Positions 1,266-47,366 of a stretch of 64,000 nucleotides of DNA are shown here, one piece after another (position 1 is the stretch's first letter; the number at the start of each line of letters is the position of its first letter). The notes under the pieces were generated by a model, which saw only the letters and a list, made by a program, of their open reading frames with translations, was not told where the DNA came from and did no database searches. Both the position numbers and the translations under genes were made by a program. Origin of the DNA: Vicinamibacterales bacterium (GTDB lineage Bacteria; Acidobacteriota; Vicinamibacteria; Vicinamibacterales; UBA2999). Location of the stretch: positions 43,114 through 107,113 of the forward strand of contig DATJFF010000163.1 of NCBI GenBank assembly GCA_035495795.1, given 5' to 3'.

Positions 1266-3202
<1,937 letters not shown>

Positions 3203-3209
3203 GCGACGA

Positions 3210-3295
3210 GATCTGGTGATCTCGTGAGCTGGGGATCTGGAGATCTGATCTGGTGATCTGAGGATCTTTCGATCTATCTGGTGATCTTGTGATCT
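3210..3295 (+). repeat. tandem array of about 11 octamer units (GATCTGGT-like) carrying 10 GATC sites
   Basis: GATCT starts at 3210, 3218, 3234, 3242, 3247, 3255, 3263, 3271, 3283 and 3291, mostly 8 nt apart. The array lies between the groEL stop (3200-3202) and its terminator. Confidence 0.9.
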
Positions 3296-3296
3296 G

Positions 3297-3335
3297 GGCC
3301 CGGCGGCCTTTTGGCTGCCGGGCCTTTCTTTTTTT
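3297..3335 (+). terminator. intrinsic terminator of groESL
   Basis: GGCCCGGCGGCC-TTTT-GGCTGCCGGGCC stem-loop followed by TTTCTTTTTTT. Confidence 0.8.
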
Positions 3336-3483
3336 CCCGCTCCACCCAGCCTCAGGCGTAGTATTCCTTTCGCTCGACTCGGTGCCCTTCATTTCGCGTT
3401 GTACGGGCTGGTCGTTTCCGTTACTAGTCAGCGGGCTTTACCCTCACTCGGCGTCTTGCGGTGCTATCGGAAGGAGAACCCCT

Positions 3484-4197: not shown

Positions 4198-5282
4198 CAG
4201 GGCACGCTCGGCCGCTCGGTGGATTTCAGGAACTCCGCCAGGTACGGCCCGAACACCTGTGGCAGTGAATGCGTGCCGTGCCCGCGCGTCTCGTCGGAGA
4301 CCGGAATCAGCACGAATCTGCTGTGCGCCACCCTGCCAATCAGGTCCCGCATCATCGGCAGCTCCGGCGGGTTCACGAAGTCGTCGGCGGAGTTGATGGC
4401 CAGCAGCGGCGCCGTGATCTCGCCGAGGTGCGCCGATGGGTCGTAGTCCTCGGACGCCTGAAAATGGTAGATCGTGTCGTTTGCATCGGTCGTCTTCAGC
4501 CGCGTCTTGATCTGATCCTCCAGCCACGCGTCGGCGGCCGCGTGCGTCGGGAACTGTTTCTGCCATTGCAGCGGGACGCTCGTCGCCAGGAGCAGGAACC
4601 CGAGCGCGCTGGCCATGCCGCGCGGCGGCTCGGAGTACTCTCCGCCCTTCCAGGTCGGATCCGTGACGATTGCGTCGACCAGGAGCTTGCGCCAGACGCG
4701 ATTGCGCCCTGCCACTTCGACTGGATTGCTGGCCAGCGGCACCAGCCCGCGCGCGAACGACGGGTACATGTACCCCCACACCCACGCGTGCATCGCGCCC
4801 ATGGACGTTCCCATGATCAGCCGCAGCTCGGAGAGCCCGAGCGCCTCGGTCACCAGCTGGTGCTGTAGCCGCACCATGTCGGTGTAGCGGTATTTCGGGA
4901 AGCGCATGTGCAAGCCATCGCTCGGCTTGCTCGACTGCCCGTGCCCGATGTTGTCGGGAAGGATGATGAAGTAGCGCTCGGCATCGAGCAGCTGCCCCTT
5001 CCCGAACAGACGGCCGGCGTAGTTCTCGGACACGAACCCCCGCCCGCTGCCACCGGTGCCGTGAAGGATCATCACCGCATTGCGGACGACTCCGTCGGCG
5101 TCCTTCCGCGGCTGACCGATCGTGCGGTAGTGAATTCTGACTTCCGCGGCGCGGTCGCCGCTCTCGAACCGCACGTCGCGCGCGATGAAGTCGCGCTCCA
5201 CGGGCGGCGGGTAGCTGGCCTGCGCGACGGCCAGGGACGGAAGGGCGAGGAGAAACGCGAGCGCTTGGATGGTGCGGGTCAC
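4197..5282 (-). CDS. secreted alpha/beta-fold hydrolase/acyltransferase (MetX-like)
   Basis: Signal peptide ...LPSLAVA|QASY. GTSMG nucleophile elbow (LIMGTSMGAMHAW). Overall pattern resembles homoserine O-acetyltransferase-type alpha/beta enzymes. Lies 19 nt downstream of the carrier-protein gene. Confidence 0.75.
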   Translation of the reverse strand: MTRTIQALAFLLALPSLAVAQASYPPPVERDFIARDVRFESGDRAAEVRIHYRTIGQPRKDADGVVRNAVMILHGTGGSGRGFVSENYAGRLFGKGQLLDAERYFIILPDNIGHGQSSKPSDGLHMRFPKYRYTDMVRLQHQLVTEALGLSELRLIMGTSMGAMHAWVWGYMYPSFARGLVPLASNPVEVAGRNRVWRKLLVDAIVTDPTWKGGEYSEPPRGMASALGFLLLATSVPLQWQKQFPTHAAADAWLEDQIKTRLKTTDANDTIYHFQASEDYDPSAHLGEITAPLLAINSADDFVNPPELPMMRDLIGRVAHSRFVLIPVSDETRGHGTHSLPQVFGPYLAEFLKSTERPSVP

Positions 5283-5538: not shown

Positions 5539-7009
5539 GGGGAGCTCCTCTGTCGAGCAGGTGACGCTGGATCTTGCCGGTGGCCGTCCGGGGGATACGC
5601 TCGGAGCGCACGAACCGTCGTGGAACCTTGTGGTGCGAGAGGCGCTCGGCGCAGAACGCGCCGAGCTCGACCGGGTCGAAGGCGGCACCAGGCACGACAT
5701 ACACCCAGACGACTTCACCCAGAAACGGGTGCGGCACCCCAACCGCTGCCGCGTCGGCAACGTCCGGGTGCGTCGAGACGACCGCCTCGATTTCGGCCAG
5801 GCTGATGCGCTCACCCGCCACCTTGACGATGTCCTTGGCCCGGCCGGTGATGAAGAGGCACGCGGTGCCGTCCAGGTACCCGACGTCGCCGGTATTGAGC
5901 CACCCCTTCTCGAGCACGCCTCCGGTCGCATCGGGATCTTCCCAGTAGCCCTGCATGACGTTCGGACCGTGCAGCCAGATCGCGCCTTCCGCACCGGCCG
6001 GCACGGGGTGGCCTTCACCGTCCCTGATCTCGATCGTCATCCCGGGAAGCACGCGGCCGACCGACTTCGGCTTCGCCGTCAGTTCATCATGAGGCAGGAA
6101 CGTGGCCCGCGTCGACGACTCGGTGAGGCCGTACATCGAGAAGATCGCGACGCGCGGCCACCCCTTCGCCAGCGCCTCCGTCGTCCAAACCGGCAGCGCA
6201 CCTCCTGAGGTCGTGATCGCGCGCAGGGCGCTCGGCACGGTCTCCGCCAGGTTCGATGAACGGGCCAGCATGTTCAAGTGGAACGGCACGACGCTGGCGA
6301 TGGTGCAGCCCTCTTTCGCGAGTCTGCCGAGCAACAGAGGCGCGGACCCGCTCTCCTCGATGAGCACGACTGACGCGCCGGCGGCGATCGCGGAAAGCAG
6401 GTTGCTCTTTCCGTAGGTGTGGGCCAGCGGCAAGATCAGGCCGTAGCGGTCATCCTCAGTCATCTCGAGGTACCGGCAGACTGCCTCGACGACGAACAGG
6501 ATGTTGCCGTGACTGAGTACCACCCCCTTCGGCAAGCCGGTGGTGCCCGACGTGAACACGACCGACGCGGGGGCATCGGTGCTTGGCGGAGCGACTGGCG
6601 CTCCCGCATCCGTGCCGCACTGTTCCAGGAAGGTGTCGAGCGAGAGCGTCGGGGCACCGACGACGATGCCTTCGAGATCGTCGCGGTCGGTCAGAACGAG
6701 CGCCGGCCTGACGCGATCGAGCAGGCGCGCGATGGTCTCCTTCTCCTCGCCGCGTCCGATCTCGACAGTGGTCGCACCCGCGAGCAGCGCGCCGAAGTAG
6801 GCCACGACATAGGCTGCAGAATTACCGGCGACGAACGCGACATAGGGCCGCTCGCAGGAGATAAGCGTGCCGCAGATCCGCGCTCCGGCGGCGGCCCGCG
6901 CGCCCAGTTCCTGGTAGGTCCATCGCTGTTCCCGCCAGACGAGCGCTTCCCGCGCCGGATGGCGCGCGACGGCGTCCGCGAAGAGACCGGCGATCGAGAA
7001 GCTGGTCAC
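5531..7009 (-). CDS. ANL-superfamily adenylating enzyme (AMP-dependent ligase, DltA/acyl-ACP ligase-like)
   Basis: TSGTTGLPKGV (A3), YGLTE (A5), NTGD (A7), GRAKDIVKVAGERI (A8) and PRTATGKIQR (A10) motifs. Confidence 0.9.
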   Translation of the reverse strand: MTSFSIAGLFADAVARHPAREALVWREQRWTYQELGARAAAGARICGTLISCERPYVAFVAGNSAAYVVAYFGALLAGATTVEIGRGEEKETIARLLDRVRPALVLTDRDDLEGIVVGAPTLSLDTFLEQCGTDAGAPVAPPSTDAPASVVFTSGTTGLPKGVVLSHGNILFVVEAVCRYLEMTEDDRYGLILPLAHTYGKSNLLSAIAAGASVVLIEESGSAPLLLGRLAKEGCTIASVVPFHLNMLARSSNLAETVPSALRAITTSGGALPVWTTEALAKGWPRVAIFSMYGLTESSTRATFLPHDELTAKPKSVGRVLPGMTIEIRDGEGHPVPAGAEGAIWLHGPNVMQGYWEDPDATGGVLEKGWLNTGDVGYLDGTACLFITGRAKDIVKVAGERISLAEIEAVVSTHPDVADAAAVGVPHPFLGEVVWVYVVPGAAFDPVELGAFCAERLSHHKVPRRFVRSERIPRTATGKIQRHLLDRGAPRE

Positions 7010-7022
7010 GACGACCGCGCGA

Positions 7023-8372
7023 TTACGTCAGCAATCGCGCGCAGAAACTGGCCATGCTGCTCCACGTATCGCTGGATTCCACCAGCCCGTGAAGCACGGC
7101 GTAGAAGCAGGACGTGAGCACGATTCCCATCACCGACCAGAGGCGGCTGTCTCCGAGGCCCGCGAAGCGCTCGGGAAAGCGGGTCGGCAGGGCCAGGACC
7201 GCGTATATCGCCGCAGCGTTGGCGAACCAGTAGATCAGGCCGGCGACCACGTTGGATACCGAGCTTTCGCCGGTGAGAATATCCGGCGAAATGTGCAGGA
7301 TACCGGAGGTGAGGAGCGCGCCGAACACCGCCAGGAACAGCTGCCGGTGCCGGCGCATGATCGGGAAGAACACGAACGTGATGATCCATTCCCGGGTCAG
7401 GATGTTCCAGCGCTGCCAGTGTTCATTGGGTGTCCGGGCCAGCAGCCAGTAGTTGAAGTTGCTCCGCACGCCGATTCCGAACAGCCGGACGATGCCGATG
7501 AACACGTTGAAGCGGAGCACGATGCCGCAGTAGTACGAGACGTAGTGGACGTACGAGGTCGCGAGCAGTGTGAACCCATGGACCGAGGCCAGCGGAAAGC
7601 GCGCCAGGAACCGGCTGCCGACCGATTGTGCAAATGACGCCGCGAGGGCGATATACAGGGCCCGCATGCCGGCCCAGCGCGTCGCCCGCAGGCGGTCGTC
7701 GCTCGCCGTACGCAGATCGTCGTAGGTGATTGCCGGACAGGTCACGAGACGGCACGAAATGTAGCTTGCGAACTCACGCAGCGACAACCGTCCGCGTGCC
7801 TGGCGGTGCGCCGAATACCAGAGCATCGGCATCAGCACCGGCCAACCGCCCAGGAAGACATCGACGGCGTCACCGGGCAGCAGCCGCGCCATCAGCACCG
7901 TGCACACCAGGCAGAAGCCGGCGACGACGAACGACAGCCGCAAGGGCGAAAGTGGAAGCTGCAGCAGCAGGTAGGTAGTGCCGACCACCGCCGCAATCGG
8001 GAGGGCGGATGGCGCATCGAGGCCGCCGTCGAGAACCGCGAATGGGAGGACCATCAGCGCGAGCAGCTTCAGCCGCACTTCGGTGGTCGAGAAGAACGTC
8101 AGGAGGAATGCAGCCAGCGCGATGGGAACAATCGGCGACAGGTGCGGGAGGCCGGCCAGCACCGGCCTTGGTTCGGGGTGCTGGAGCATGTAACCGCCCA
8201 GATACCGCGCGAGCAGCCAGAAGCGCGGTTCGAGGACGATGATGCCGATGGCGGCGAGCCCGAACCAGAGGAATTCCGAATCCTGGATGCGGGTGGACAG
8301 CGAGGCCGCGGCAGCGAACGCTGCTACGGGCCGGCGCTGGGAGATCGCTTCCGATGACTGCACAGACTGCAC
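7023..8372 (-). CDS. MBOAT-family membrane-bound O-acyltransferase (DltB/AlgI-like)
   Basis: Polytopic 449-aa protein. RSNFNYWLLARTPNEHWQRWNILTREW matches the MBOAT P-NF-N..A.S..EFW.RW(H/N) block. A conserved His follows 37 aa later (SGILHIS). GTG start. Confidence 0.75.
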   Translation of the reverse strand: MQSVQSSEAISQRRPVAAFAAAASLSTRIQDSEFLWFGLAAIGIIVLEPRFWLLARYLGGYMLQHPEPRPVLAGLPHLSPIVPIALAAFLLTFFSTTEVRLKLLALMVLPFAVLDGGLDAPSALPIAAVVGTTYLLLQLPLSPLRLSFVVAGFCLVCTVLMARLLPGDAVDVFLGGWPVLMPMLWYSAHRQARGRLSLREFASYISCRLVTCPAITYDDLRTASDDRLRATRWAGMRALYIALAASFAQSVGSRFLARFPLASVHGFTLLATSYVHYVSYYCGIVLRFNVFIGIVRLFGIGVRSNFNYWLLARTPNEHWQRWNILTREWIITFVFFPIMRRHRQLFLAVFGALLTSGILHISPDILTGESSVSNVVAGLIYWFANAAAIYAVLALPTRFPERFAGLGDSRLWSVMGIVLTSCFYAVLHGLVESSDTWSSMASFCARLLT

Positions 8373-19246: not shown

Positions 19247-19277
19247 GAATGCGGAAGAGCGTAACTCTTCCGCATTC
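19247..19277 (-). terminator. perfect 13-bp-stem hairpin between pckA and gatB (possible terminator or processing site; no U-tract)
   Basis: GAATGCGGAAGAG-CGTAA-CTCTTCCGCATTC. It ends 5 nt upstream of the gatB ATG (19241). Confidence 0.4.
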
Positions 19278-19293
19278 TACATGGCCTGCTTTC

Positions 19294-19335
19294 GCCTTGT
19301 GCCTTCTGCCTTGTGCCTTTTGCCTTCTGCCTTTT
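19294..19335 (-). repeat. heptamer tandem array, 6 units GCCTT(C/G/T)T (AGAAGGC in gene sense)
   Basis: GCCTTGT GCCTTCT GCCTTGT GCCTTTT GCCTTCT GCCTTTT. Starts 2 nt after the pckA stop (19338-19340). Confidence 0.9.
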
Positions 19336-31540: not shown

Positions 31541-31616
31541 GGAGGTGCGACAGGTGCCGCTGCGGGAGGTGCGACGGGTGCGGCAGGTGCCGGTGCGAAG
31601 GTGCGACGGGTGCACA
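31541..31616 (-). repeat. about 9 octamer-like units (GGTGCGAC / AGGTGCC on the plus strand)
   Basis: GGAGGTGCGACAGGTGC at 31541, GGAGGTGCGACGGGTGC at 31565, GAAGGTGCGACGGGTGC at 31597. GGTGC recurs about every 8 nt. Lies between the permease stop (31634-31636) and the dksA-like start (31470). Confidence 0.8.
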
Positions 31617-31633
31617 GGAGCGGAAGGTGTTCT

Positions 31634-34216
31634 CTACTCGGCACGGAGCGTCGAGAGCGGTTTGCGCTGGAGGACGTCCCAGCTGGCGCCGATGCCGACG
31701 GCGGCCACGAGCAGCGCAGTGGCCGCTACGCCGCCGATCGTGACCAGCGGCAGCCACCGGAACGGGATGTTCAACGCAAACCGGCTGATCCCCCAGGTGA
31801 GCCCGGCCGCGCCGGCGGCGCCAATCGCGCCCGCCAGCGTGCCCAGCAGGCCGTATTCAAGCAGCAGCACCGTGGTGATGAGCCGCCGGGTCGCGCCGAG
31901 CGTCTTGAAGATGGCCGCTTCGTAGATGCGCCGGAACTTGGTCATGGCGACCGCACCGATGAGGATCAGCAGGCCGCTCAGCACGACGAGCGAACCGACG
32001 ACGGTCACCGCGAGCGTGACGTTGTCCACCACCTTCTTGATCGCCTGCAGGATCTCCCGGCCGTCGATGACCGAGACGTTCGGTGCGACGCCGACGAGCT
32101 CGGCCTGAAGCAGCCCGCGGGTCGTGGCCTCAGCGGGGCCGCGGAAGAAGGCGATCGATCCATGCGGCGCCTGGTCCAGTACGCCGGGCCGGAACACGAA
32201 CATGAACCCGCCGGCGCGACTGTCGGACCACTCCACGTGGCGGACGCTGGTCACTCGCGCATCGATGGAGCGGCCGAGCACGTCGAAGCGCATCGTGTCG
32301 CCGACGTTGATCCTGAAGCGGGTGTGAATGCTCTCCTCGATCGACACCTCGGCGCCGCCGGCTTCGGCGTTCTGGGTTCGAGGTTCGGGGTTCGGGGTTC
32401 CCGATTTGGGGTTCTGGTCATTCCAGAACTTCCCCGCTATGACGCGCTCGTTCCGCTCCAGTTCCGGCCTGTAGGTGACCGTGTATTCGCGCGCGAGCGA
32501 GCCTCGCCCGCGAACGTCCTCGTAGTTCTCCAGCTGGATCTCGCGTCCCTCGACCCCGATCACCCGCGCGCGCAGGACCGGGAGGAGCCGCGGCGGCGCG
32601 GTTCCTGGATCCTGCCTCGCGATTACCGTCTGCCGGACGGCCTCGACCTGGTCGGCCTGCACGTCCAGCAGGAACATGTCGGGCGCGTCGGGTGACGTGT
32701 CCACGGCGAACTCGGAGATGAGGTTCTGCTGGAGCGATCGGACCCCGAGAATGAAGAAGCTGCCCAGGCCGACGGCGAGCAGCACGATGCGCACCTGGCT
32801 GCCGGGACGGCTCAACTGCAGCACCGCGTGACGCAGCGCGAACCAGCGCGATCGCGACAACGGCTTGATCAGCCGAACCAGCAGCGATCCCGCAAGGTGA
32901 AGCGCAACTGTCGTCACCGCCAGCCCGATCGTAACGACCAGTCCGACCCGCCAGGATCCCGCCTGCCAGACCGTGAGGAGGACGAGGCAGATCATGACCG
33001 CGGCAATCGCGACCCGCTGCGCCCAATCCAGCGTGCCCAGGTCGGATTGATCGCGCAGCAGCCGCGACGGCTTGACGTGGCGGATTTCGAGCAGCGGGAC
33101 GATCGCGAACAGCACGGAAATCGTGACGCCGATCGCCAGGCCCTGGAGCGCCGCACCAGGCGTGACGACGTAGTGCACGTCGAGCCCGTTCACTCCCGCA
33201 GGCAGGAGGATCGGAACCGCGGCGACTGCGGCCGCAGCCAGCGCGATGCCCAGGCCACTGCCGGCGATGCCGAGCAGCACGACCTGCGCCAGGTAGACGG
33301 CGAGCAGCTGCGACGACCGGGCACCGATGCACTTCAGCACCGCAATGCTCTTGATCTTCTGTTGTACGAACACGCGCGTCACGCTCGACACGCCGATGCC
33401 GCCGAGGATGACGATGACGAGTCCGACCAGGCTCAGGTAGTCCTCGGCGCGGGCGAAGTCCTCGCCGATGTCGTCCTCGGTGGTCTTGTAGGAACGGACA
33501 CGCGCGAACTGGTTCGCGAAATCACCGCGGAGCGACGAGACCAGCTTGTCGAGCGTCGCGTCCGGCGCCTTGATCAGCCGCTGATACGAGGCGCGGGTCC
33601 CGAAACCCAGCAGCCCTGCCTGCTGCAGCCCGGCGAACGACACGAACACGCGCGGGCCGAAGCTGAAAGCGCCCAGCCGCCGGCCCGGCTCGCTCTCGAT
33701 CAACCCACGAATCTCGAAACGCTGCCGGCCGATCAGCAGCGCGTCGCCGACGTTGACGCCGAGCTGTGCCTGGAGCTCCGGTCGAATCAACGCCCCGTTG
33801 TCGCCCAGCAATTCCGGCGTGAACGGCGCATCCCCGACCAGGACCATGCTCCCGTAGAACGGGAAGCCGGGCTCAACGGCCTTCAGCTCCACCATCCTCG
33901 TCCGCCCGTCACTGCGATCCGCCGCCCGCACCATCGTCGCCATCTCGATCGATTGGATGCTGGTCGCGCCGGCATCCCGCAGGCGGCCGTCGACGGCAGC
34001 GGCAAGCTCTGGCTTCAGAGGTTGGTTGCTCGTCACGATCGCATCGGCGGTAATCAGGGCGCGCGCTTCGCCGGCGAAGGTCTGCCTGACGCTCTGGATG
34101 ACGGAGCGGAGCGCGACAATCGCGCCGACGCCGACGGCGATGCACAGGAAGAAGAACAGCAGGCGTCGCCACGACGTCCGCAGCTCACGGGCGATCATGC
34201 GGGTGATGAAGGTCAT
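31634..34216 (-). CDS. FtsX-like ABC transporter permease, fused double module (YbbP-like)
   Basis: 860 aa with two FtsX-type 4-TM modules. ATGA overlap with the upstream ATPase gene. Confidence 0.85.
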   Translation of the reverse strand: MTFITRMIARELRTSWRRLLFFFLCIAVGVGAIVALRSVIQSVRQTFAGEARALITADAIVTSNQPLKPELAAAVDGRLRDAGATSIQSIEMATMVRAADRSDGRTRMVELKAVEPGFPFYGSMVLVGDAPFTPELLGDNGALIRPELQAQLGVNVGDALLIGRQRFEIRGLIESEPGRRLGAFSFGPRVFVSFAGLQQAGLLGFGTRASYQRLIKAPDATLDKLVSSLRGDFANQFARVRSYKTTEDDIGEDFARAEDYLSLVGLVIVILGGIGVSSVTRVFVQQKIKSIAVLKCIGARSSQLLAVYLAQVVLLGIAGSGLGIALAAAAVAAVPILLPAGVNGLDVHYVVTPGAALQGLAIGVTISVLFAIVPLLEIRHVKPSRLLRDQSDLGTLDWAQRVAIAAVMICLVLLTVWQAGSWRVGLVVTIGLAVTTVALHLAGSLLVRLIKPLSRSRWFALRHAVLQLSRPGSQVRIVLLAVGLGSFFILGVRSLQQNLISEFAVDTSPDAPDMFLLDVQADQVEAVRQTVIARQDPGTAPPRLLPVLRARVIGVEGREIQLENYEDVRGRGSLAREYTVTYRPELERNERVIAGKFWNDQNPKSGTPNPEPRTQNAEAGGAEVSIEESIHTRFRINVGDTMRFDVLGRSIDARVTSVRHVEWSDSRAGGFMFVFRPGVLDQAPHGSIAFFRGPAEATTRGLLQAELVGVAPNVSVIDGREILQAIKKVVDNVTLAVTVVGSLVVLSGLLILIGAVAMTKFRRIYEAAIFKTLGATRRLITTVLLLEYGLLGTLAGAIGAAGAAGLTWGISRFALNIPFRWLPLVTIGGVAATALLVAAVGIGASWDVLQRKPLSTLRAE
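32366..32414 (-). repeat. heptamer tandem array (GGGGTTC-like, 7 units) inside the permease CDS
   Basis: GGCGTTC TGGGTTC GAGGTTC GGGGTTC GGGGTTC CCGATTT GGGGTTC. In gene sense it encodes NPKSGTP NPEPRTQ NAEAGGA. Confidence 0.8.
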
Positions 34217-39643: not shown

Positions 39644-40024
39644 ATGAACCACGCCACCGTCGCCAGCCTCGCCAGCACCCGTTCCTCCAGCCTGCCCGCC
39701 CGGCTCACCTGGAAAGACGCGAATGGGGCCATGCGCTTCACCTCTGTCAAAGCCAGCGACCTCACCGACACCGGCGTCGTCGTGGAATGCGAGAGTGCCG
39801 TGTCGCTGCCGCTGTATCGCCTGGTGCACCTGCAGGTCGAGAAGTCGGCCCGCGAGTGGGTGGAGTTGCCGCAGCCGCTCCGCGACGGACGCGTGCTGTC
39901 GGCGGTCTGGCAGGTCGCGCCGTGCAAGCCGTCCACCGGCACGCCCGGCGGATACGCGCTGCGATTCATGACGCCGCCGGCCCAGGCCTGCGACGCCGCC
40001 ACGATGCGCCGCCGGGCCTCCTAG
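39644..40024 (+). CDS. PilZ-like domain protein
   Basis: 126 aa. SDLTDTGVVVE resembles the PilZ DxSxxG block (Ser to Thr), and the beta-rich pattern fits. The RxxxR motif is degenerate (TRSSSLPAR). Confidence 0.4.
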   Translation: MNHATVASLASTRSSSLPARLTWKDANGAMRFTSVKASDLTDTGVVVECESAVSLPLYRLVHLQVEKSAREWVELPQPLRDGRVLSAVWQVAPCKPSTGTPGGYALRFMTPPAQACDAATMRRRAS

Positions 40025-40034
40025 AGGACCGGGG

Positions 40035-40934
40035 TCACTGCGCCTGCTTGCGCCAATAGCGCGCCAGGCCAGCCCAGACTTGCTCGAACGGCGCTGCCGC
40101 TTCGAGCGCCGCCGCGTCGCGTTCCGAGAGAGCTCCCCGCGCCTCGGTCCGCATGCGGGCGACAAAGGATGCCACTCGCTCCTGATCCGACTCCCCATCG
40201 GAGAGCGATTGGCGGACGATTTCGGCCATTGCGTCCAGCACCACCCGATATCGCGGCAGGTACTCGCTGGCGTCCGGTACGAGCCCGAAGTGCGTCAACA
40301 GGAGGGCGCTCGGCTGCCACGCGGCGATGCGCTCCAGGCTGCCGTACCAGGCCGGCAGATCCACGTCGGGAGGCGGCGTCGCGGCAATCATGTAACCGCC
40401 AACGATGCAGATGCCGCCGGTGTCGCCGATGTAGGCCGTCCGGTCGTCCCGATCGAAGTACGACACGTGGTGCACCGCGTGGCCCGGCGTATAAGCCACC
40501 TCCAGCGTCCGGCCGCCCGCCTGCAGCTGCTCGCCCCCGCTCAGCACCTCCACCCGATCGGCAGGCGCCGGCTCGAACGCGCCCCAGAGCGTGTCCATCT
40601 GGTCGCCGTACAGCCTGGTCGCGCTCGAAATCAGTTTCGCGGGATCGATCATGTGCGGCGCCCCGCGCTCGTGGACCGAAACGGTCGCATGCGGAACGCG
40701 GCGAAGGATCGTGCCCGTCGCGCCGGCGTGATCGAGGTGGATGTGCGTGAGCAGGACCGACCGCACGTCGGCGAGTGAGCCACCGAGCCGCGCCAGGCCC
40801 GCTTCGAGTGCCGGCAGGCACGTCGTCGGTCCGGGGTCGATCACCGCGAATCCGTCAGGTCCGGTCAGCACGGCGGCCGCGATGACTCGCTCGCGGCCCT
40901 GGAAATTGAGGTCGACGATCTCCACGGCGGTCAA
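40035..40934 (-). CDS. MBL-fold metallo-hydrolase
   Basis: LLTHIHLDHAG metal-binding motif. Start set to the TTG at 40934 (TTGA overlap with the upstream stop); the GTG at 40925 is an alternative. Confidence 0.8.
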   Translation of the reverse strand: MTAVEIVDLNFQGRERVIAAAVLTGPDGFAVIDPGPTTCLPALEAGLARLGGSLADVRSVLLTHIHLDHAGATGTILRRVPHATVSVHERGAPHMIDPAKLISSATRLYGDQMDTLWGAFEPAPADRVEVLSGGEQLQAGGRTLEVAYTPGHAVHHVSYFDRDDRTAYIGDTGGICIVGGYMIAATPPPDVDLPAWYGSLERIAAWQPSALLLTHFGLVPDASEYLPRYRVVLDAMAEIVRQSLSDGESDQERVASFVARMRTEARGALSERDAAALEAAAPFEQVWAGLARYWRKQAQ

Positions 40935-41497
40935 TCGTGGAACGACAGATGCCGCCGCTCCGAGACGAAGCGGCCGTCCGGCTCCGGCACGAAGATCAGG
41001 CACTCCTCGAGATCCCCGCCGTAGACGTGCAGGGTCAGCGATGGTGTGTCGGGGCGTGCATTTTCGATCACGTGATGGTCGGTCGGCGGAATCAGGCGGC
41101 CGGCTTCGCCGCTGCCAGCCACGACGGTCTGTCGCGGCTGAATGTTGTAGCGGTGATCGGGTTCCTCGGTGACGTCGTATTGCGTAACCGCGATCTGCCC
41201 TTCGACCACGCCTTCCACGCACCACAGGCCGCCATGGTCGTGCACTGGCGTCCCCTGCCCTGGTCCCCAGGTCATCACGATTGCGGTGTACCGGCCCTGC
41301 GGATCGCGGTGCAGGAGCCGCCTCGCGTAACCGTCCGCACGAGTTGCACGGAAGGTGTCCGGAAGCACGACTCCACCACTGGCGAGCTCATGCTCGAGCA
41401 CGCCTTTCACCGCGCGCGTGATGGCCTCCACCGACCCGGCGTTCACCGCCTCGTCGAGCCGGGCCACGAGCGCCGAACAGAGCTGGTCGGTCTGCAT
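40931..41497 (-). CDS. cysteine dioxygenase type I-like cupin
   Basis: TWGPGQGTPVHDHGGLWCVEGVVEGQI and HHVIEN cupin His motifs typical of bacterial CDO homologues. Confidence 0.7.
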   Translation of the reverse strand: MQTDQLCSALVARLDEAVNAGSVEAITRAVKGVLEHELASGGVVLPDTFRATRADGYARRLLHRDPQGRYTAIVMTWGPGQGTPVHDHGGLWCVEGVVEGQIAVTQYDVTEEPDHRYNIQPRQTVVAGSGEAGRLIPPTDHHVIENARPDTPSLTLHVYGGDLEECLIFVPEPDGRFVSERRHLSFHD

Positions 41498-41505
41498 CGC
41501 GTTCT

Positions 41506-41545
41506 GCCTTCGCCTTGTGCCTTCGCCTTGTGCCTTCTGCCTTGT
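41506..41545 (-). repeat. 6/7-mer tandem array GCCTTC / GCCTTGT / GCCTTCT (AGAAGGC in gene sense)
   Basis: GCCTTC GCCTTGT GCCTTC GCCTTGT GCCTTCT GCCTTGT. Lies 14 nt after the S9 peptidase stop (41560-41562) and 8 nt before the CDO-like start (41497). Confidence 0.9.
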
Positions 41546-41559
41546 TGTTGTTCCCCAGC

Positions 41560-43956
41560 CTACTTCTTCAGGTTCGCGTCGAACAACTTGAGGATCCGCT
41601 TGTACTCATCCGCCCAGCTCGTCGCCTCGATGAACCCGTGGTCCTCGACCGGGTAGACGGCCAGTTCCCAGTTCTCTTTCCGCAGCTCGATGAGGCGCTG
41701 CGCGAGGCGAACCGAGTCCTGGAAGTGCACGTTGGTGTCGACCATGCCGTGGCAGATGAGGAGCGCGCCCTTCAACCCATCGGCAAAGAAAATCGGAGAG
41801 CTTTTCCGGTACGTCTCTTCCGAGGACTGCGGCTCGTCGAGGATGTTCGACGTGTAGGAATGGTTGTAGTGCGCCCAGTCGGTGACCGGACGCAGGGCGG
41901 CGCCAGCCGCAAACGTGTCGGGAGAGGTGAACATCGCCATCAGCGTGATGAAGCCGCCGTAGCTGCCGCCGTACACGCCGACGCGGCGGGCGTCCACGTT
42001 CTGCGACGCCGCCAGATACCCGGCGCCATCCACGACGTCGTCGAGATCGTGACCGCCCATCCATCCGTAGATCGCGGTGCGCCAGTCTCGGCCGTAGCCC
42101 GCGCTGGCGCGGTAGTCGGGATCGAGCACCACGTAGCCCTGCGACGCCAGCACGTGGTGAAACATGTACTCGCGGTAGTACGACGACCAGTAGCGGTGCG
42201 CGTTCTGCAGATACCCGGCCCCGTGCACGAACACCACCGCCGGCCGCGACGGATGGCGCCGGGCGCCGACCATCTCGGGCGTGAACAGACGCGCGTATAC
42301 CATCGCGCCGTCACGAGCCTTGTATTGAATGAGCTGCGGCTCCACCCACTTGAAGCCGCGCCACTCGTCGGAGGTACTCGTCGTCACCTGCGTGGGGGTG
42401 GCGCCGGCCCGGTTCGGCATCAGGAACACCTCGGGTGGACGATTCGACGCTGACGAGATCAGTCCGAGCATCTCCCGGTCCGGCGAAACCGAGGCCTGGT
42501 GCGCACCCGCCGCTGTGGTCAGGCGCTCGCGCGATCCCCCATCGACCGACACCCGGTAAATGTGACGCTCGCCGGGGTGCGCCTCGCTCGATTCGAGATA
42601 GAAGTGACCGCCATCCGGCGAGAGCTCGACCCGATCGATCTCGAAGGTACCTTGGGTAATCGCGGTGCCGGACGGTGAGTCGGCGATCACGTCGACGGTG
42701 TAGAGCTGCATCCAGCCGGTGTGCTCGGCGAGGAACCAGACGCGACGGTTGTCGCGCAGCCAGCCGAGACCGCCCGCGATGTTCCCGCTCGGGCCGATCT
42801 CCCGGACCCAGGCGCTGTCGTGGATCGTGTCCAGCACGCGCGTCTTGCCGCTTGCGGGATCGACGCGGACCAGCCACCGATCGGTGTTGTCGTCGGAACG
42901 GATGCTCGCCACCGCCTGGTTGCCATCGCCCGACAACAGCAGCGATGTCCATCGGACTTCACGCGACGGCTTCGGGGCGGGCGGGGGCGTCGCCGGCGCC
43001 TCGTCCGAGGTGTCCCCCATCTTCGGCCGTGGAATCTCTTGGGCGTCCACGATGCCCTCGAGCCCGGCCCACACCGCCTCCCCGTTCCGCAGGTTGAGGA
43101 TCGCGAGACGTCGCCGATCCTGCGCGTCGCCGACTTTGGTGCGAGACTGAATGTCTTCGGTGTACGCCGACTCGCTGACGAAGCGCGGAACGACGGCCGT
43201 ACGGGACTGCGCCCGTTCGGTGACTAGCAGGTAGGCGTAGATCCCGTCTCCGGATACTGCGGCATCGGTGACCGACTGGCGCTCGGCGAGCTCGAAGCGC
43301 GGCAGCGCCCGTTCGGCCTCGCGCGCTTCCCGCCGCTCGCGGCGGGCGCGTTCCTGCTCCACCCAGTCCAGGATGTGCGCCTCTTCGCGACGCAGCGCCC
43401 GCTGACTGTCGGTCATCTTCGAGTCCGGCCGCTTCTGGGCGACGTCGGTGAGCTGGACGAGCCCGCCGCTCCCGTCGAGGGGAACCAGGAACAGGTTGTT
43501 GTCCCGGACGAAGGTCACCGCGGTCTCGTTGCGGGCCCAGCGCGGCGACGACTCCGCGGCGGTGGTTCGCGTGATGTCGATTCGCCGATTCTCGGTGGTG
43601 TCGATGACAACGATGTCGCCGTTGTCGACGCCGAGTTGCCGCCGCCGGGCCGCGTCCCATTGTCCCGTGGGCAGCGGCGCCGAGCGGCGCTCGTTCTCCG
43701 TCAGCCGGCGCGGCGCGCCTCCGGCCCTGTTCACGACCCACGTCGCCGCCACATCGTCTTTCGGCTGCCGCCATTCGAAGTAGAGCCGCTGCGAGTCACC
43801 GGACCAGCGGGTGTTGTCGGGAGGATAGCCGACGAGATCGGGCCCGCGCATGATGCTGTCTACGGTCAGCGGAAACGAACGGGCGGCGGTCTGCGATTGG
43901 ACGAACGTAGTGAGCGCGACGAGGGCCAGGCCTGCCGCGGCAAGGGGCTTGGGCAT
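41560..43956 (-). CDS. S9-family serine peptidase (prolyl oligopeptidase / dipeptidyl peptidase type) with N-terminal beta-propeller
   Basis: GGSYGGFITLMAM nucleophile elbow and a C-terminal HGMVDTNVH block. Start moved to the ATG at 43956 (MPKPLAAAGLALVAL signal peptide), because the longer track ORF translates the repeat array. Confidence 0.9.
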   Translation of the reverse strand: MPKPLAAAGLALVALTTFVQSQTAARSFPLTVDSIMRGPDLVGYPPDNTRWSGDSQRLYFEWRQPKDDVAATWVVNRAGGAPRRLTENERRSAPLPTGQWDAARRRQLGVDNGDIVVIDTTENRRIDITRTTAAESSPRWARNETAVTFVRDNNLFLVPLDGSGGLVQLTDVAQKRPDSKMTDSQRALRREEAHILDWVEQERARRERREAREAERALPRFELAERQSVTDAAVSGDGIYAYLLVTERAQSRTAVVPRFVSESAYTEDIQSRTKVGDAQDRRRLAILNLRNGEAVWAGLEGIVDAQEIPRPKMGDTSDEAPATPPPAPKPSREVRWTSLLLSGDGNQAVASIRSDDNTDRWLVRVDPASGKTRVLDTIHDSAWVREIGPSGNIAGGLGWLRDNRRVWFLAEHTGWMQLYTVDVIADSPSGTAITQGTFEIDRVELSPDGGHFYLESSEAHPGERHIYRVSVDGGSRERLTTAAGAHQASVSPDREMLGLISSASNRPPEVFLMPNRAGATPTQVTTSTSDEWRGFKWVEPQLIQYKARDGAMVYARLFTPEMVGARRHPSRPAVVFVHGAGYLQNAHRYWSSYYREYMFHHVLASQGYVVLDPDYRASAGYGRDWRTAIYGWMGGHDLDDVVDGAGYLAASQNVDARRVGVYGGSYGGFITLMAMFTSPDTFAAGAALRPVTDWAHYNHSYTSNILDEPQSSEETYRKSSPIFFADGLKGALLICHGMVDTNVHFQDSVRLAQRLIELRKENWELAVYPVEDHGFIEATSWADEYKRILKLFDANLKK

Positions 43957-44000
43957 GCCTTTCACTCTAGCAGGCTGCTGAACTGCGACAGCCTGCGATG

Positions 44001-44070
44001 ACAAGGCAGAAGGCAGAAGGCAGAAGGCAAAAGGCAGAAGGCAGAAGGCCGAAGGCAGAAGGCCGAAACC
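44001..44070 (-). repeat. heptamer tandem array, 9-10 units AGAAGGC on the plus strand (GCCTTCT in gene sense)
   Basis: ACAAGGC (AGAAGGC)x3 AAAAGGC (AGAAGGC)x2 CGAAGGC AGAAGGC CGAAACC. Starts 1 nt after the GNAT stop (44072-44074) and is inverted relative to 41506-41545. Confidence 0.9.
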
Positions 44071-44071
44071 C

Positions 44072-44602
44072 TCAACGACGCTGGTTGCGATACGCCGCAT
44101 AGAGCCGCTGATCGCGGACTTCGCCATACTTGATGGCGCTCTGTCGCAATCGCCCTTCGAGCACGTAGCCGGCTTTCTCGAGGACGCGGATCGACGCGGA
44201 GTTGGACTCGAACGGGACGGCGAACAGGCGGGTCAGCTCGAACTTCGCAAACGCAAAGTCTGTGACCGCCCGCAGCGCCGCGGTCGCCAGGCCGCGCCCC
44301 CAGAACGGCTGGCCGAGCCAGTACCCGATCTCGGCCGAGACTCGTTCAATGTCGTGACCCAGTTGGAGGCCGATGCCGCCGACGACCGAGCCGTCGAGCG
44401 CAATCGCCCACACGCTTTCGACCGGCTGCTGCGCCACCCAGTGCAGAAAGCCGAGCCCATCCACGGCTTCGTAGGGATGAGGAAAGCGATCGCGCAGGTT
44501 GCGGGCCACATCGCGATTGTTCGCGATGCGCACCAGCGGCTCGAGGTCGTGCTCCCGCCACGTCCGCACTTCAGCGCCAGCGATCGGCAGATCCAGCTTC
44601 AT
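44072..44602 (-). CDS. GNAT-family N-acetyltransferase (RimJ/RimL-like)
   Basis: IGYWLGQPFWGRGLATAALRAVTDFAF acetyl-CoA-binding block. Confidence 0.85.
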   Translation of the reverse strand: MKLDLPIAGAEVRTWREHDLEPLVRIANNRDVARNLRDRFPHPYEAVDGLGFLHWVAQQPVESVWAIALDGSVVGGIGLQLGHDIERVSAEIGYWLGQPFWGRGLATAALRAVTDFAFAKFELTRLFAVPFESNSASIRVLEKAGYVLEGRLRQSAIKYGEVRDQRLYAAYRNQRR

Positions 44603-44771
44603 AGGGTCCCCCGCGGCTCGTTCCGTGGTTCGCGTACGAATCTCCCGGCCCTATTGATCGGCCGGCAGGACACGAGAAGTCGCGCGGCGTCAGCAGGGCG
44701 CGTTCGGAGTCAACGAAGGGTGGAACGATCTTCCTGGCAGGCGAACTGCGGTCGCGATCCGGGCGAGACTG

Positions 44772-45632
44772 TCAGCGCGTGCGGCCCCCAAACGTATCGC
44801 ACGACTGAATATCGCCGGACGTCAGACCACGGCGCAACCACTCCACGCGCTGCTGAGACGATCCGTGCGTGAAGCTCTCCGGCACCACCCGCCCCTGCGA
44901 CTGCTGCTGCAGGCGGTCGTCGCCGATCGAGGCGGCGGCACGCAAACCTTCTTCAGCGTCACCGGGATCGAGCCTGTTCTGCTGGGCAGCATAGTGTCCC
45001 CAGACTCCGGCGTAGCAATCTGCCTGCAGCTCGAGCCGGACTGAGAGCTGATTGGCTTCGGTCTCCGACGACTGCTGCTGAAGCCTCGACACCTTCTGGT
45101 TCGTGCCGACCAGGTTCTGGATGTGATGCCCGACTTCGTGCGCCACGACGTACGCCTGTGCGAAGTCGCCGGGGGCCCCGAAGCGCTGGTCCAACTCGCG
45201 GAAGAACGAGAGATCCAGATACACCTTGTGATCGGACGGGCAATAGAAGGGACCGGTCGCGGACGACGCCGATCCGCATGCCGACTGCACCGCGTTGTCG
45301 AACAGCACGAGCACCGGCGGTTGGTATTGCTCGCCTGCCTTGGCGAAGATCGAGGTCCAGGTGTCTTCGATGTTGCCCAGCGTTCTGCCGATGAACTTCG
45401 ACTGTGGATCGTCGCCGGCGGAGCCGGTTGGCACTTCCTCCTGCGCCGGGCCGCCGCCACCGCCTCCAGTCATCTGCAGCAGCGAGAGCGGGTTCACCCC
45501 GGTTATCCACGAGATGACGAGGACGATGAGGATGGTGCCGATGCCCCCGCCGCCGATGCCGACAGGGCCTCCCATCCGCATGCCGCGACGATCCTCAATA
45601 TTGGTGCTTTCGCGCTGATCCTCGAGCCGCAT
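44772..45632 (-). CDS. YpfJ-family putative neutral zinc metallopeptidase
   Basis: MRLEDQRESTNIEDRRG start, one TM segment, and YVVAHEVGHHIQN HExxH motif, characteristic of the YpfJ family. Confidence 0.85.
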   Translation of the reverse strand: MRLEDQRESTNIEDRRGMRMGGPVGIGGGGIGTILIVLVISWITGVNPLSLLQMTGGGGGGPAQEEVPTGSAGDDPQSKFIGRTLGNIEDTWTSIFAKAGEQYQPPVLVLFDNAVQSACGSASSATGPFYCPSDHKVYLDLSFFRELDQRFGAPGDFAQAYVVAHEVGHHIQNLVGTNQKVSRLQQQSSETEANQLSVRLELQADCYAGVWGHYAAQQNRLDPGDAEEGLRAAASIGDDRLQQQSQGRVVPESFTHGSSQQRVEWLRRGLTSGDIQSCDTFGGRTR

Positions 45633-45723
45633 GGCGGTAGCTTATATCGCGGCTGCAATCGCTGCGCCACATTGTCGATCGGGGCGACGCCACCTCGACC
45701 GCAGCCGGCGGTAGAATCGCCAC

Positions 45724-46224
45724 ATGTCGGAAACGGTCGTGCGCGCGACCGGCGCGGCCGTGACCATCGCCTACGCCGCGCTCATCGCATGGCTCGCAGC
45801 GTCGCAGCCGCAATCGATTGCGGAGGTCACCGGGGGCCTTGCTGCCACCGTTGGCGCGTACGAAGTGGATGCGGTCAGCTTCGGGGAGGGACGGCAGATG
45901 TTCCTCCGCGACGAGTTCGAGGCCGCCCGCTCGGCCTGGTCCCGAGCCGATCCCGCCGGCCGCGACCCCCGGACGCAGTTCTACGTCGCCTACAGTTACT
46001 ATCGCCAGGGCTGGGGACGGCTGAGTCACGACGATGCGTTGTACGCCGCGGGACTCGACACGCTGAACCGCGCGGTCGCGGCGGCGCCGGGCGGACGCAT
46101 CGTCGTGTCCGATCCCGAACTGCAGTTGCACACCGCAGACGAGCTCGGCGCCGAGCTGCGTGCCGGGCAGCGGCGCGAGTGGTCGGACCTGAACCCGATG
46201 CGGGTGTTCGGGAGCCGCAAATGA
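45724..46224 (+). CDS. hypothetical membrane-anchored protein
   Basis: N-terminal TM (AAVTIAYAALIAWLAA) followed by a helical soluble part. TAGAAT -10-like element just upstream. Confidence 0.5.
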   Translation: MSETVVRATGAAVTIAYAALIAWLAASQPQSIAEVTGGLAATVGAYEVDAVSFGEGRQMFLRDEFEAARSAWSRADPAGRDPRTQFYVAYSYYRQGWGRLSHDDALYAAGLDTLNRAVAAAPGGRIVVSDPELQLHTADELGAELRAGQRREWSDLNPMRVFGSRK

Positions 46225-46871
46225 CGCCCGCGCGCGAGGCCTTTGCCCTTCCGCTCACCTTTCTCACGGTGGTGCTCATCGGCGCTATCCGCCTCACTAC
46301 GCCCGTCGCGATCGTGCCGCCGACGCTGTTCTCGCTCGTCCTCGGCAGCATCCTGATGACCGTATTCATCCAGAGCGGCACGCTGGATCCCTCGCGTCTT
46401 GTCGGCGGCGACCGCTCGGCCTGGGCCAACACCAACGGGCTGCTGGCGCTGGTGGCGCTGTTTCTCGCCAACGCGCAGGTCATCTCGAGGCTGACGCCTG
46501 ACAGCGGCTTCCCCGCGCTCGTCGTCGGCGCGCTGTTCCTGGTCACGCTGCTTCAACTCGCCGCTGCCGCGCTGGATCGCGTGCGCTGCCTCAGGGTCTG
46601 GGGTGTCACCCTGCTCTCGGCCTTCGTACTCAAGTTCATTGTCGTCGCCACCCTCGCGGGCCCGGCCGACCGCCCGATGGCGCGGGCACTCCAGGCCCTC
46701 GTCGAAGGCCTGACCTTTGGCAACTTTTCGCAGCCGGTGGAACGCGCCGCGGCTGGCTATCTCACCTTCGCGATGCTCGCCGTGTACCTGATGGGCCTTG
46801 TTCTCCTTCCGTGCCTGCAGCACAGCGCGCTGTCGCAGACCAAGGCAGTGCTCCTACCTCCTGACTCCTGA
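46221..46871 (+). CDS. hypothetical polytopic membrane protein
   Basis: ATGA overlap with the upstream gene. About 6 hydrophobic segments. This is only the C-terminal third of the 582-aa track ORF. The stop codon lies inside the heptamer array. Confidence 0.55.
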   Translation: MTPAREAFALPLTFLTVVLIGAIRLTTPVAIVPPTLFSLVLGSILMTVFIQSGTLDPSRLVGGDRSAWANTNGLLALVALFLANAQVISRLTPDSGFPALVVGALFLVTLLQLAAAALDRVRCLRVWGVTLLSAFVLKFIVVATLAGPADRPMARALQALVEGLTFGNFSQPVERAAAGYLTFAMLAVYLMGLVLLPCLQHSALSQTKAVLLPPDS

Positions 46872-46899
46872 CTCCTACCTCCTGATTCCTGGCTCCTGT
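46851..46899. repeat. heptamer tandem array, 7 units CTCCTGA/CTCCTAC (TCAGGAG/GTAGGAG on the minus strand)
   Basis: CTCCTAC CTCCTGA CTCCTGA CTCCTAC CTCCTGA TTCCTGG CTCCTGT at a convergent junction. Confidence 0.9.
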
Positions 46900-46901
46900 C
46901 C

Positions 46902-47366
46902 TTAGCGCAGCGTTGACCACACTTCGCGTCGGACTGCGTCGCGCAGTTCCGCGGAGCGGGCGCTGTTCGCCTTGCGTTGCGCTTCGTCCGGTACGACGCG
47001 GAGCGTGGCGGCGTCGAGACCGGGCCCAAGATCATCGACGGCGACCAGGTTCTTCACCTTGAAGATCCGGAGGTGTGTCCAATCGGGTTTCGTACCGTCC
47101 GGGTTGGATGTGGCCAATACCGTGGTCACCTCGAGGAAGGCACCTGCGCGGCGCGCGTCTTCGTCGATCTTTTCAGCGGTGCCCTTGATGTAGGCGCTGT
47201 ACTCCTCGAGCCGGCCGGGGCGTGCGCGCCAGTAATAGGCCACGTAGGCCGGCGCGTCGCCGGGCGCCTGAACGGCCGCGCGGGCATGTAGTGTCCATTC
47301 GTTCATGCCGGCGGTGACAAGAGCCGCCATCGCCACGATCACGCCAACGAGCACGGTTCGCTTCAT
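46902..47366 (-). CDS. hypothetical exported or anchored protein (alpha+beta barrel-like)
   Basis: N-terminal hydrophobic segment MKRTVLVGVIVAMAALVTAG, high GC3 in frame, no firm motif. Confidence 0.55.
   Translation of the reverse strand: MKRTVLVGVIVAMAALVTAGMNEWTLHARAAVQAPGDAPAYVAYYWRARPGRLEEYSAYIKGTAEKIDEDARRAGAFLEVTTVLATSNPDGTKPDWTHLRIFKVKNLVAVDDLGPGLDAATLRVVPDEAQRKANSARSAELRDAVRREVWSTLR

Follow-up and report, generated by a model that had tools for sequence, protein, structure and literature searches.

Heptamer arrays around the S9 peptidase gene

We analyzed a 64,000-nt stretch of a Vicinamibacterales genome, hereafter referred to as the window, and focused on a gene encoding an S9 family peptidase that lies between two inverted arrays of one heptamer. 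The list of open reading frames (ORFs) and domain searches place three genes on the minus strand: a GNAT acetyltransferase gene (44602-44072), downstream of it the S9 peptidase gene (prolyl oligopeptidase/DPP-IV-like; 43956-41560; Pfam PF00326 and PF00930) and, downstream of S9, a gene encoding a CDO-like cupin (cysteine-dioxygenase-like, CDO_I; 41497-40931). This is also the order given in an initial annotation of the DNA. A gene encoding a protein with a metallo-beta-lactamase fold comes next after the CDO-like gene on the same strand, and the domain search revealed a Zn peptidase as a further neighbour.

Both spacers next to the S9 gene contain tandem heptamers, as detected with Tandem Repeats Finder (TRF). 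Array A (41497-41545, minus strand in mRNA sense) consists of about 6.5 irregular units of 6 and 7 nt, reading TCGCGTTCTGCCTTC GCCTTGT GCCTTC GCCTTGT GCCTTCT GCCTTGT on the plus strand and composed of ACAAGGC, AGAAGGC and GAAGGC units in mRNA sense. TRF describes it with a period of 13 or 7 (period 7 at 41512-41545) and a score of 75. Its first unit lies 14 nt past the S9 stop codon and its last unit abuts the CDO-like ATG, placing a Shine-Dalgarno-like GAAGG motif every 6-7 nt upstream of the CDO-like start. Array B (44003-44067, likewise minus strand in mRNA sense) is a non-coding run of about nine tandem heptamers that begins 4 nt past the GNAT stop codon and leaves 46 nt between its end and the S9 start codon. 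Its plus strand carries AGAAGGC units, that is (AAGGCAG) x 9.3 with three point variants, corresponding to GCCUUCU in mRNA sense (TRF period 7, 9.3 copies, 91% matches, score 109).

The initial annotation had described these elements as inverted arrays around the single S9 ORF (41560-43956), and both sequences and gene calls bear this out. The 14-mer GCCTTCTGCCTTGT is found at 41532-41545 and its exact reverse complement ACAAGGCAGAAGGC at 44001-44014, while the extended segments 41525-41545 and 44001-44021 agree at 20 of 21 positions. A third array, previously noted at 19294-19335, was also recovered. This array C (19286-19335, minus strand) lies between a pckA-like stop codon (19338) and a gatB-like start codon (19241) and is built of GCCTTGT, GCCTTCT and GCCTTTT units on the plus strand (TRF period 7, 14 or 21, with period 7 at 19286-19333; score 73). 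Regarding repeat orientation, two of the three arrays are on the plus strand and one is on the minus strand, and all three occupy spacers of co-directional genes. The 12-mer GCCTTCTGCCTT, allowing up to two mismatches, has 24 matches in the window versus 4.1 +/- 2.2 in shuffled sequences, and 18 of the 24 fall inside the three arrays. Moreover, the 24-mer TTCGCCTTGTGCCTTCTGCCTTGT is identical in array A (41522-41545) and array C (19291-19314), with the variant order G, C, G. This could reflect copying between loci rather than independent growth, or coincidence.

The S9 reading frame remains open upstream through array B into the 3′ end of the GNAT gene, as far as an ATG at 44127. A longest-ORF caller would consequently add 57 spurious residues to S9, a repeat-encoded peptide among them. 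The true start is 43956, as shown by the signal-peptide-like N-terminus encoded from there and by relatives that align from residue 1. The corresponding ribosome-binding region reads GAAAGG, 1 nt, AUG. Between array B and this region lies a local hairpin on the minus strand, GCAGGCUG...CAGCCUGC (43968-43998), which is not followed by a U-run and is kept in the closely related loci L201 and L202 (see below).

Array turnover in strains and relatives

Relatives of the S9 protein are found in Acidobacteriota, mostly in metagenome-assembled genomes of Vicinamibacterales, the best species representative being 70% identical. An exact look-up of the window S9 protein itself matched no contig. Three loci, L201, L202 and L203, are much closer: their proteins are members of the 90%-identity cluster of the window S9 protein and they are 96-99% identical to the window at the nucleotide level. 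Both arrays are present in L201 and L202, and array A in L203, a partial contig, all of them matching the window in site and orientation and having nearly identical flanks. Unit numbers, in contrast, differ. Array B comprises 9 units in the window, 5 in L201 and 4 in L202 (in L203 it would lie outside the contig), and array A comprises about 6.5 units in the window, 7 in L201, 9 in L202 and 7 in L203. These strain-to-strain differences come in 7-nt steps at both A and B. Unit numbers that differ between nearly identical flanks are the footprint of slippage in a young simple sequence repeat (SSR). The comparison of strains further revealed that the copy numbers of A and B change independently and that unit variants do not covary: the ACAAGGC and 6-nt GAAGGC units of A stand opposite the GCCUUCU units of B as mismatches and bulges, not as compensated pairs. 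In L202 (334-2729), S9 is called as two ORFs (334-2349 and 2349-2729), pointing to a frameshift and hence a possible pseudogene, or to an assembly error.

The nearest species representatives have kept the synteny from the Zn peptidase gene to GNAT-S9-CDO and lack the arrays. In L001 (70% amino acid identity) the GNAT and S9 genes overlap (ATGA), in L002 (70%) they are separated by 16 nt and no more than about 10 nt lie between the end of S9 and the CDO-like ATG, and in P0004 (84%) the GNAT-S9 and S9-CDO spacers measure 20 and 11 nt, respectively. No GNAT gene is found upstream of S9 in L204 and L205 (both 80%) or in L206 (77%), and here the S9-CDO spacer is again 11 nt long, reading GCTAGAGAACC (L204/L205) or GCTAGAGCGTC. 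Junctions of -4 to 20 nt in these six loci leave no room for arrays. Conservation of the bracket, which the initial annotation had named as a check, therefore ends at strain level, as the bracket is absent from every relative examined at 70-84% amino acid identity. L204 does carry heptamer arrays of its own, at least five of them, built of different units (GAAGTAG, TCCYACT, TCCTACC and AGGAGAC/CCTCCTC) at junctions that are array-free in the window (1995-2067, 4786-4852, 5694-5760 and 7775-7920), including one pair with the G-rich arm first between convergent genes. No heptamer arrays at all were found in 15 kb of L206. With other arrays at other junctions in L204, and none in L206, array content turns over quickly and is very different from one related lineage to the next. 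An all-against-all megablast of 200 loci yielded no near-identical array-bearing pairs for further copy-number comparison. Arrays A, B and C are SSRs of a single dispersed family, consisting of (AGAAGGC)n or its complement. They arose recently in this species-level lineage, within operon junctions that are very short where no array is present.

Heptamer arrays in related and metagenome loci

TRF was run on 201 sequences comprising related and metagenome loci. Genes in the metagenome loci were called with a crude ORF picker comparing GC content at third and second codon positions (GC3-GC2), with which stop-codon distances are robust and start-codon distances less so. A total of 332 period-7 arrays was obtained, distributed over 139 of the 201 sequences. 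In a lag-self-match test on 302 kb of Vicinamibacteria loci, 14 arrays had a period of 7, compared with 0-1 arrays at any of the remaining periods between 4 and 15. The units are specific to lineages (ATTGCGG, CGGGATT, AGAAGCA, CTAATCC and others), and one locus, L019, carries AGAAGGC itself. At least 120 metagenome contigs contain an exact (AGAAGGC)x4, with a median GC content of 61% among the matches listed.

Adjacent arrays of the same family are inverted in 65 cases and direct in 10, and 51 of the 65 inverted pairs are less than 100 nt apart. For such close inverted pairs, predicted hairpin energies range from -47 to -157 kcal/mol. Of 50 close pairs, 45 begin with the G-rich (purine-rich) arm (p = 4e-9), as do 30 of 31 within the AGAAGGC family. 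This rule is independent of the strand, as either transcript reads 5′-R-array, loop, Y-array-3′. Examples are found in L008 (4539-4616), L090 (3507-3641), L110 (9014-9229) and L204 (7775-7920). Some loops hold a terminator-like stem followed by a T-run (L057, L090, L110 and L120, the last three judged by eye). Canonical terminators were dropped as a general loop content, since a strict perfect-stem rule applied to only 2 of 33 pairs.

A different picture emerges once close-paired arrays are left out. Solo arrays that neighbour one another within a family are inverted in 9 cases and direct in 7, which equals chance. Arrays are depleted between divergent genes (9/79, versus 91/414 background spacers; p = 0.03). 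In co-directional spacers, 33 solo arrays are nearer the upstream stop codon and 11 nearer the downstream start codon, the median distance being 13 nt from the upstream stop to the array start and 65 nt from the array end to the next start. The window pair departs from the canonical close pair in three respects: its C/T-rich arm comes first, its arms are separated by 2457 nt and neither arm has a nearby partner. On these grounds, A and B are two solo arrays rather than a stretched canonical pair. The idea of a split hairpin, in which S9 was inserted into the loop of a canonical pair, was likewise rejected, given that the arm order is opposite to that of 45 of the 50 pairs and that S9 is syntenic without arrays in relatives.

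Strain-level polymorphism, absence from relatives and chance orientation of solo arrays lead us to consider the A/B bracket as most probably an incidental inverted pair of hypervariable heptanucleotide SSRs. Units would be gained and lost by slipped-strand mispairing during replication, and the inverted orientation of A and B would represent a 50:50 outcome for two neighbouring family members rather than a selected bracket. Arrays may be retained in places where their presence is largely harmless, in the interval from a stop codon to the initiation signals of the next gene. Array A would have replaced an 11-nt spacer and, by offering GAAGG every 6-7 nt before the CDO-like AUG, would make changes in unit number nearly neutral for initiation. 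Array B would amount to a C/U-rich spacer devoid of structure within the 3′ region of GNAT, and pairing between the A and B RNAs to a by-product.

Predicted RNA pairing across the S9 gene

By itself, the exact inverted 14-mer is not significant in 64 kb, as a few such matches are estimated to occur by chance. Complementarity at the level of whole arrays, on the other hand, is significant, the A-B RNA duplex reaching -74.5 kcal/mol versus -36.3 +/- 5.0 kcal/mol in shuffles (RNAduplex). Each array alone is almost unstructured (-9.4 kcal/mol for B). In the minimum free energy (MFE) fold of the 2691-nt RNA bounded by the GNAT end and the CDO start, array A is paired with B over 44 nt, and barring B from pairing costs 66 kcal/mol. 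The co-folding computation advised in the initial annotation hence returns the A-B stem both as an isolated duplex and within the whole RNA. L201 and L202 have a comparable A-B duplex potential. A duplex of array C with array B reaches -76.5 kcal/mol, indicating that opposite-sense members of the family pair equally well whichever two are combined.

A scan of 40000-46000 revealed neither a sigma-70-like promoter nor an intrinsic terminator consensus. Together with the overlapping or abutting GNAT, S9 and CDO genes of relatives, this makes it plausible that the three genes are co-transcribed as an operon. Two soil metatranscriptomes provided a few short contigs, all inside S9.

A long-range duplex enclosing the S9 cistron had been proposed from the outset, by analogy with the processing stems of rRNAs. 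According to this explanation, a polycistronic mRNA would fold into an imperfect stem of about 44 bp that is cut by RNase III or masks the CDO-like ribosome-binding site (RBS), with array copy number tuning the outcome. In rRNA operons, RNase III stems are formed by complementary segments 1.5-3 kb apart that are conserved and covarying and surround an untranslated RNA. Arrays A and B resemble these stems in being complementary segments that flank an RNA and are able to form a long duplex. They differ in that the bracket is young at the strain level, is hypervariable, encloses a translated cistron and displays neither conservation among relatives nor covariation among strains.

The nearest precedent for involvement of RNase III is the heptamer SSR (ATCTTTC)n in the 5′ untranslated region (UTR) of Haemophilus influenzae hmw1A, in which the transcribed repeats pair with an adjacent G-rich region to form a hairpin that was experimentally shown to be processed by RNase III (PMC12721329). 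Like the hmw1A repeat, the window arrays are heptamer SSRs of variable copy number with long duplex potential. The hmw1A hairpin is local, whereas the predicted pairing partners A and B are 2.4 kb apart across a translated ORF.

Of the proposal of a functional duplex, the strong in silico pairing holds up: it far exceeds that of shuffled sequences, the stem forms part of the MFE fold of the 2.7-kb RNA with a worth of about -66 kcal/mol, its potential is retained in L201 and L202, and the absence of promoter and terminator consensus between genes that are coupled in relatives fits a common transcript. The proposal does not hold as regards selection, of which there is no sign, or conservation beyond strains. 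The bracket is missing in all relatives at 84% amino acid identity or less, A and B vary independently in copy number and their unit variants do not covary, the inverted orientation matches chance expectation (9 versus 7), the arm order is opposite to that of canonical G-rich-first pairs, and the duplex of C with B shows that equal pairing is available to any opposite-sense members of the family. Moreover, where relatives have no GNAT gene, the neighbour upstream of S9 is divergent. S9 may therefore carry its own promoter, in which case array B would be off the S9 mRNA. Overall, a functional long-range duplex appears decidedly unlikely. One version of it, in which the CDO-like start codon would be hidden by the stem or RNase III would cleave the stem, while slippage in either array tunes the relative S9 and CDO-like output, we hold to be, if anything, slightly more doubtful. 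If true, it would extend the SSR/RNase III mechanism of hmw1A to pairing over a long range, in an acidobacterium that is free-living in soil.

Several points weigh against an incidental origin of the inverted pair. That same-family arrays occupy both junctions of one gene within a single recent lineage is mildly coincidental, the probability being roughly estimated at 0.05-0.1 (3 arrays among about 55 spacers). The strength of the A-B duplex, its inclusion in the MFE fold and its persistence in L201 and L202 leave room for an effect on expression. Furthermore, slippage is known here from its footprint only, the array density in this organism rests on 64 kb, and gene calls in the metagenome loci derive from a crude GC3-based finder.

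Proposed DNA inversion and possible expression tuning

The initial annotation had also considered that, at the DNA level, the arrays might support inversion of the segment between them. In such a switch, A and B would serve as inverted repeats for homologous or site-specific recombination flipping S9, and inverted repeats of about 45-65 bp placed 2.4 kb apart do offer a suitable geometry. This part of the claim finds no support in the assemblies, in that all three that span both arrays (the window, L201 and L202), albeit a small sample, have the same orientation, L201 aligning with the window in a single collinear high-scoring segment pair of 3566 nt. A domain search detected no recombinase or invertase domain among the neighbouring genes, and the arms, besides being imperfect, are short for an exchange mediated by RecA. 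Inversion would additionally uncouple S9 from its RBS and operon, and no alternative promoter is evident. In four soil metagenomes, the region 40800-44000 is represented by low-depth Logan contigs only, which end at array A and provide no positive evidence for a second orientation. We consequently regard an inversion switch as extremely improbable.

Copy-number variation might also act locally, independent of long-range pairing, in the manner of contingency loci. Slippage would then alter the spacing and number of GAAGG motifs before the CDO-like start (array A) and the length of the GNAT-S9 spacer (array B), giving rise to heritable, reversible expression variation among cells. In line with this explanation, copy-number polymorphism is found at precisely these two sites, and array A lies directly against the ATG in place of the ancestral 11-nt spacer. 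Additionally, an intergenic heptamer SSR modulates expression in H. influenzae hmw1A (PMC12721329), and a translational role was proposed for start-proximal TAACTGA repeats (PMC4679880). However, the genes flanked by arrays are ordinary metabolic and housekeeping genes (pckA/gatB, groEL, macB/dksA and S9) rather than typical surface or contingency genes, and arrays in relatives are mostly stop-proximal, not start-proximal. The 7-nt period would also keep a GAAGG at a similar distance from the start at any copy number, so the effect may be nil. Tuning of this kind is, in our view, unlikely.

Comparison with known repeat systems

Intergenic heptameric SSRs are known from Xanthomonas (GGGAATC) and Nostoc (GGGGAYT) (Rehm et al. 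2015; PMC4692102). Xanthomonas genomes harbour 183-186 GGGAATC arrays each, among them 70-75 close convergent pairs able to form stem-loops; 7-8% of the arrays lie between divergent ORFs, and array length differs between related species (PMC4692102). The arrays described here resemble them in many ways: they are tandem 7-nt units, dispersed over intergenic regions on both strands of a high-GC genome, are rare between divergent genes, vary in length between close relatives, form close convergent (G-rich then C-rich) pairs in related loci, and occur near housekeeping genes, including groES/groEL. They differ in the unit AGAAGGC/GCCTTCT, which lacks G-tracts and therefore has no G-quadruplex potential, as well as in the acidobacterial host, the co-occurrence of several unrelated units in one genome and the placement of two solo arrays on either side of a gene.

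Repeats of TAACTGA in Beggiatoaceae, cyanobacteria and Bacteroidetes comprise 2-6 copies of one unit that is conserved across taxa, and are mostly start-proximal (PMC4679880). Like these and the short tandemly repeated repetitive (STRR) sequences of cyanobacteria, the window arrays are dispersed tandem heptamers in non-coding spacers, some of them, as array A, directly upstream of a start codon. Unlike TAACTGA repeats, they comprise 4-17 units, are mostly stop-proximal and have lineage-specific units. As summarized in PMC4692102, Mrazek et al. (2007) found heptamers to be over-represented among bacterial SSRs, an excess that has been attributed to polymerase slippage and is possibly due to the polymerase footprint.

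The arrays described here belong to the known class of dispersed intergenic heptanucleotide SSRs (STRR-like or Xanthomonas-type). This assignment is based on their tandem 7-nt units in non-coding DNA, depletion from divergent spacers, occurrence at many loci and on both strands, whole-unit polymorphism and the period-7 excess. A different type of dispersed element is formed by the repetitive extragenic palindromic sequences (REP) and bacterial interspersed mosaic elements (BIME), also described as REPIN, of enterobacteria and pseudomonads. These lineage-specific elements are dispersed over spacers with a gene 3′ end, often as inverted hairpin doublets. A REP is a palindrome of fixed form, about 35 nt in length, that is moved by RAYT transposases. 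Unlike REP/BIME, the window arrays expand unit-wise in 7-nt steps, and no RAYT gene was noticed, no search aimed at one having been made.

A search of the available literature produced no account of such arrays in Acidobacteriota. Uncultured soil members of this phylum, namely Vicinamibacteria and relatives, harbour abundant heptamer SSR arrays with lineage-specific units, and these share with the arrays of Xanthomonas and cyanobacteria the habits of stop-codon proximity, depletion between divergent genes and G-rich-first close pairs. Recurrence across phyla supports a general mechanism for the bacterial period-7 excess, either mutational or tied to the ends of transcription units. As a caution, inverted repeats that stem from a dispersed, fast-evolving SSR family should not be taken as design. 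On the practical side, the arrays break short-read assemblies and can extend ORFs artefactually, as does array B in the S9 frame. They can also insert in frame into proteins, as in a MacB-like permease (see below), and might serve as strain-typing markers for uncultured soil bacteria.

Other short-period arrays in the window

Further short-period arrays were found in the window, and these are elements of the same class as A, B and C with different units. On the plus strand, about 12 copies of GATCTGG(T) (3210-3297) follow the GroEL stop codon (3202) and precede a terminator-like hairpin with T-run (3298-3336), which places this array inside the groEL 3′ UTR. On the minus strand, an array reading CTCCTGA on the plus strand (46851-46898) is located 3 nt past the stop codon of ORF 46902-47366. 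In mRNA sense its sequence is (UCAGGAG)n, a series of AGGAG motifs that strongly resemble Shine-Dalgarno sequences. Counting A and B, three spacers within 5.4 kb contain arrays. A degenerate GGTGCGAC-type array (31543-31622, minus strand) is situated between the stop codon of a gene for a MacB/FtsX-like permease (31634) and the DksA start codon (31470), and is missing from the 80-nt counterpart spacer of L204. All six non-coding arrays of the window start 2-14 nt past a stop codon. A close inverted pair of heptamer arrays was found nowhere in the window, and an Rfam search of the window matched no family.

The remaining array is coding. It reads TTCGGGG on the plus strand (32363-32417) and lies inside the MacB/FtsX-like permease ORF itself (31634-34216, minus strand). 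Relative to an 80%-identical ortholog (L204, 19712-22252), it represents a 14-amino-acid in-frame insertion around NDQNPKSGTPNPEPRTQN, the reading frame being kept because the 42 extra nt correspond to six heptamers (2 x 21).

With respect to start-proximal features, GCTAGAG was dropped as a candidate general motif since it occurs only once in the window. A perfect 13-bp hairpin, GAATGCGGAAGAG cgtaa CTCTTCCGCATTC, is present at 19247-19277 between array C and the gatB-like start, ending 5 nt upstream of the gatB-like ATG with no obvious Shine-Dalgarno sequence in between.

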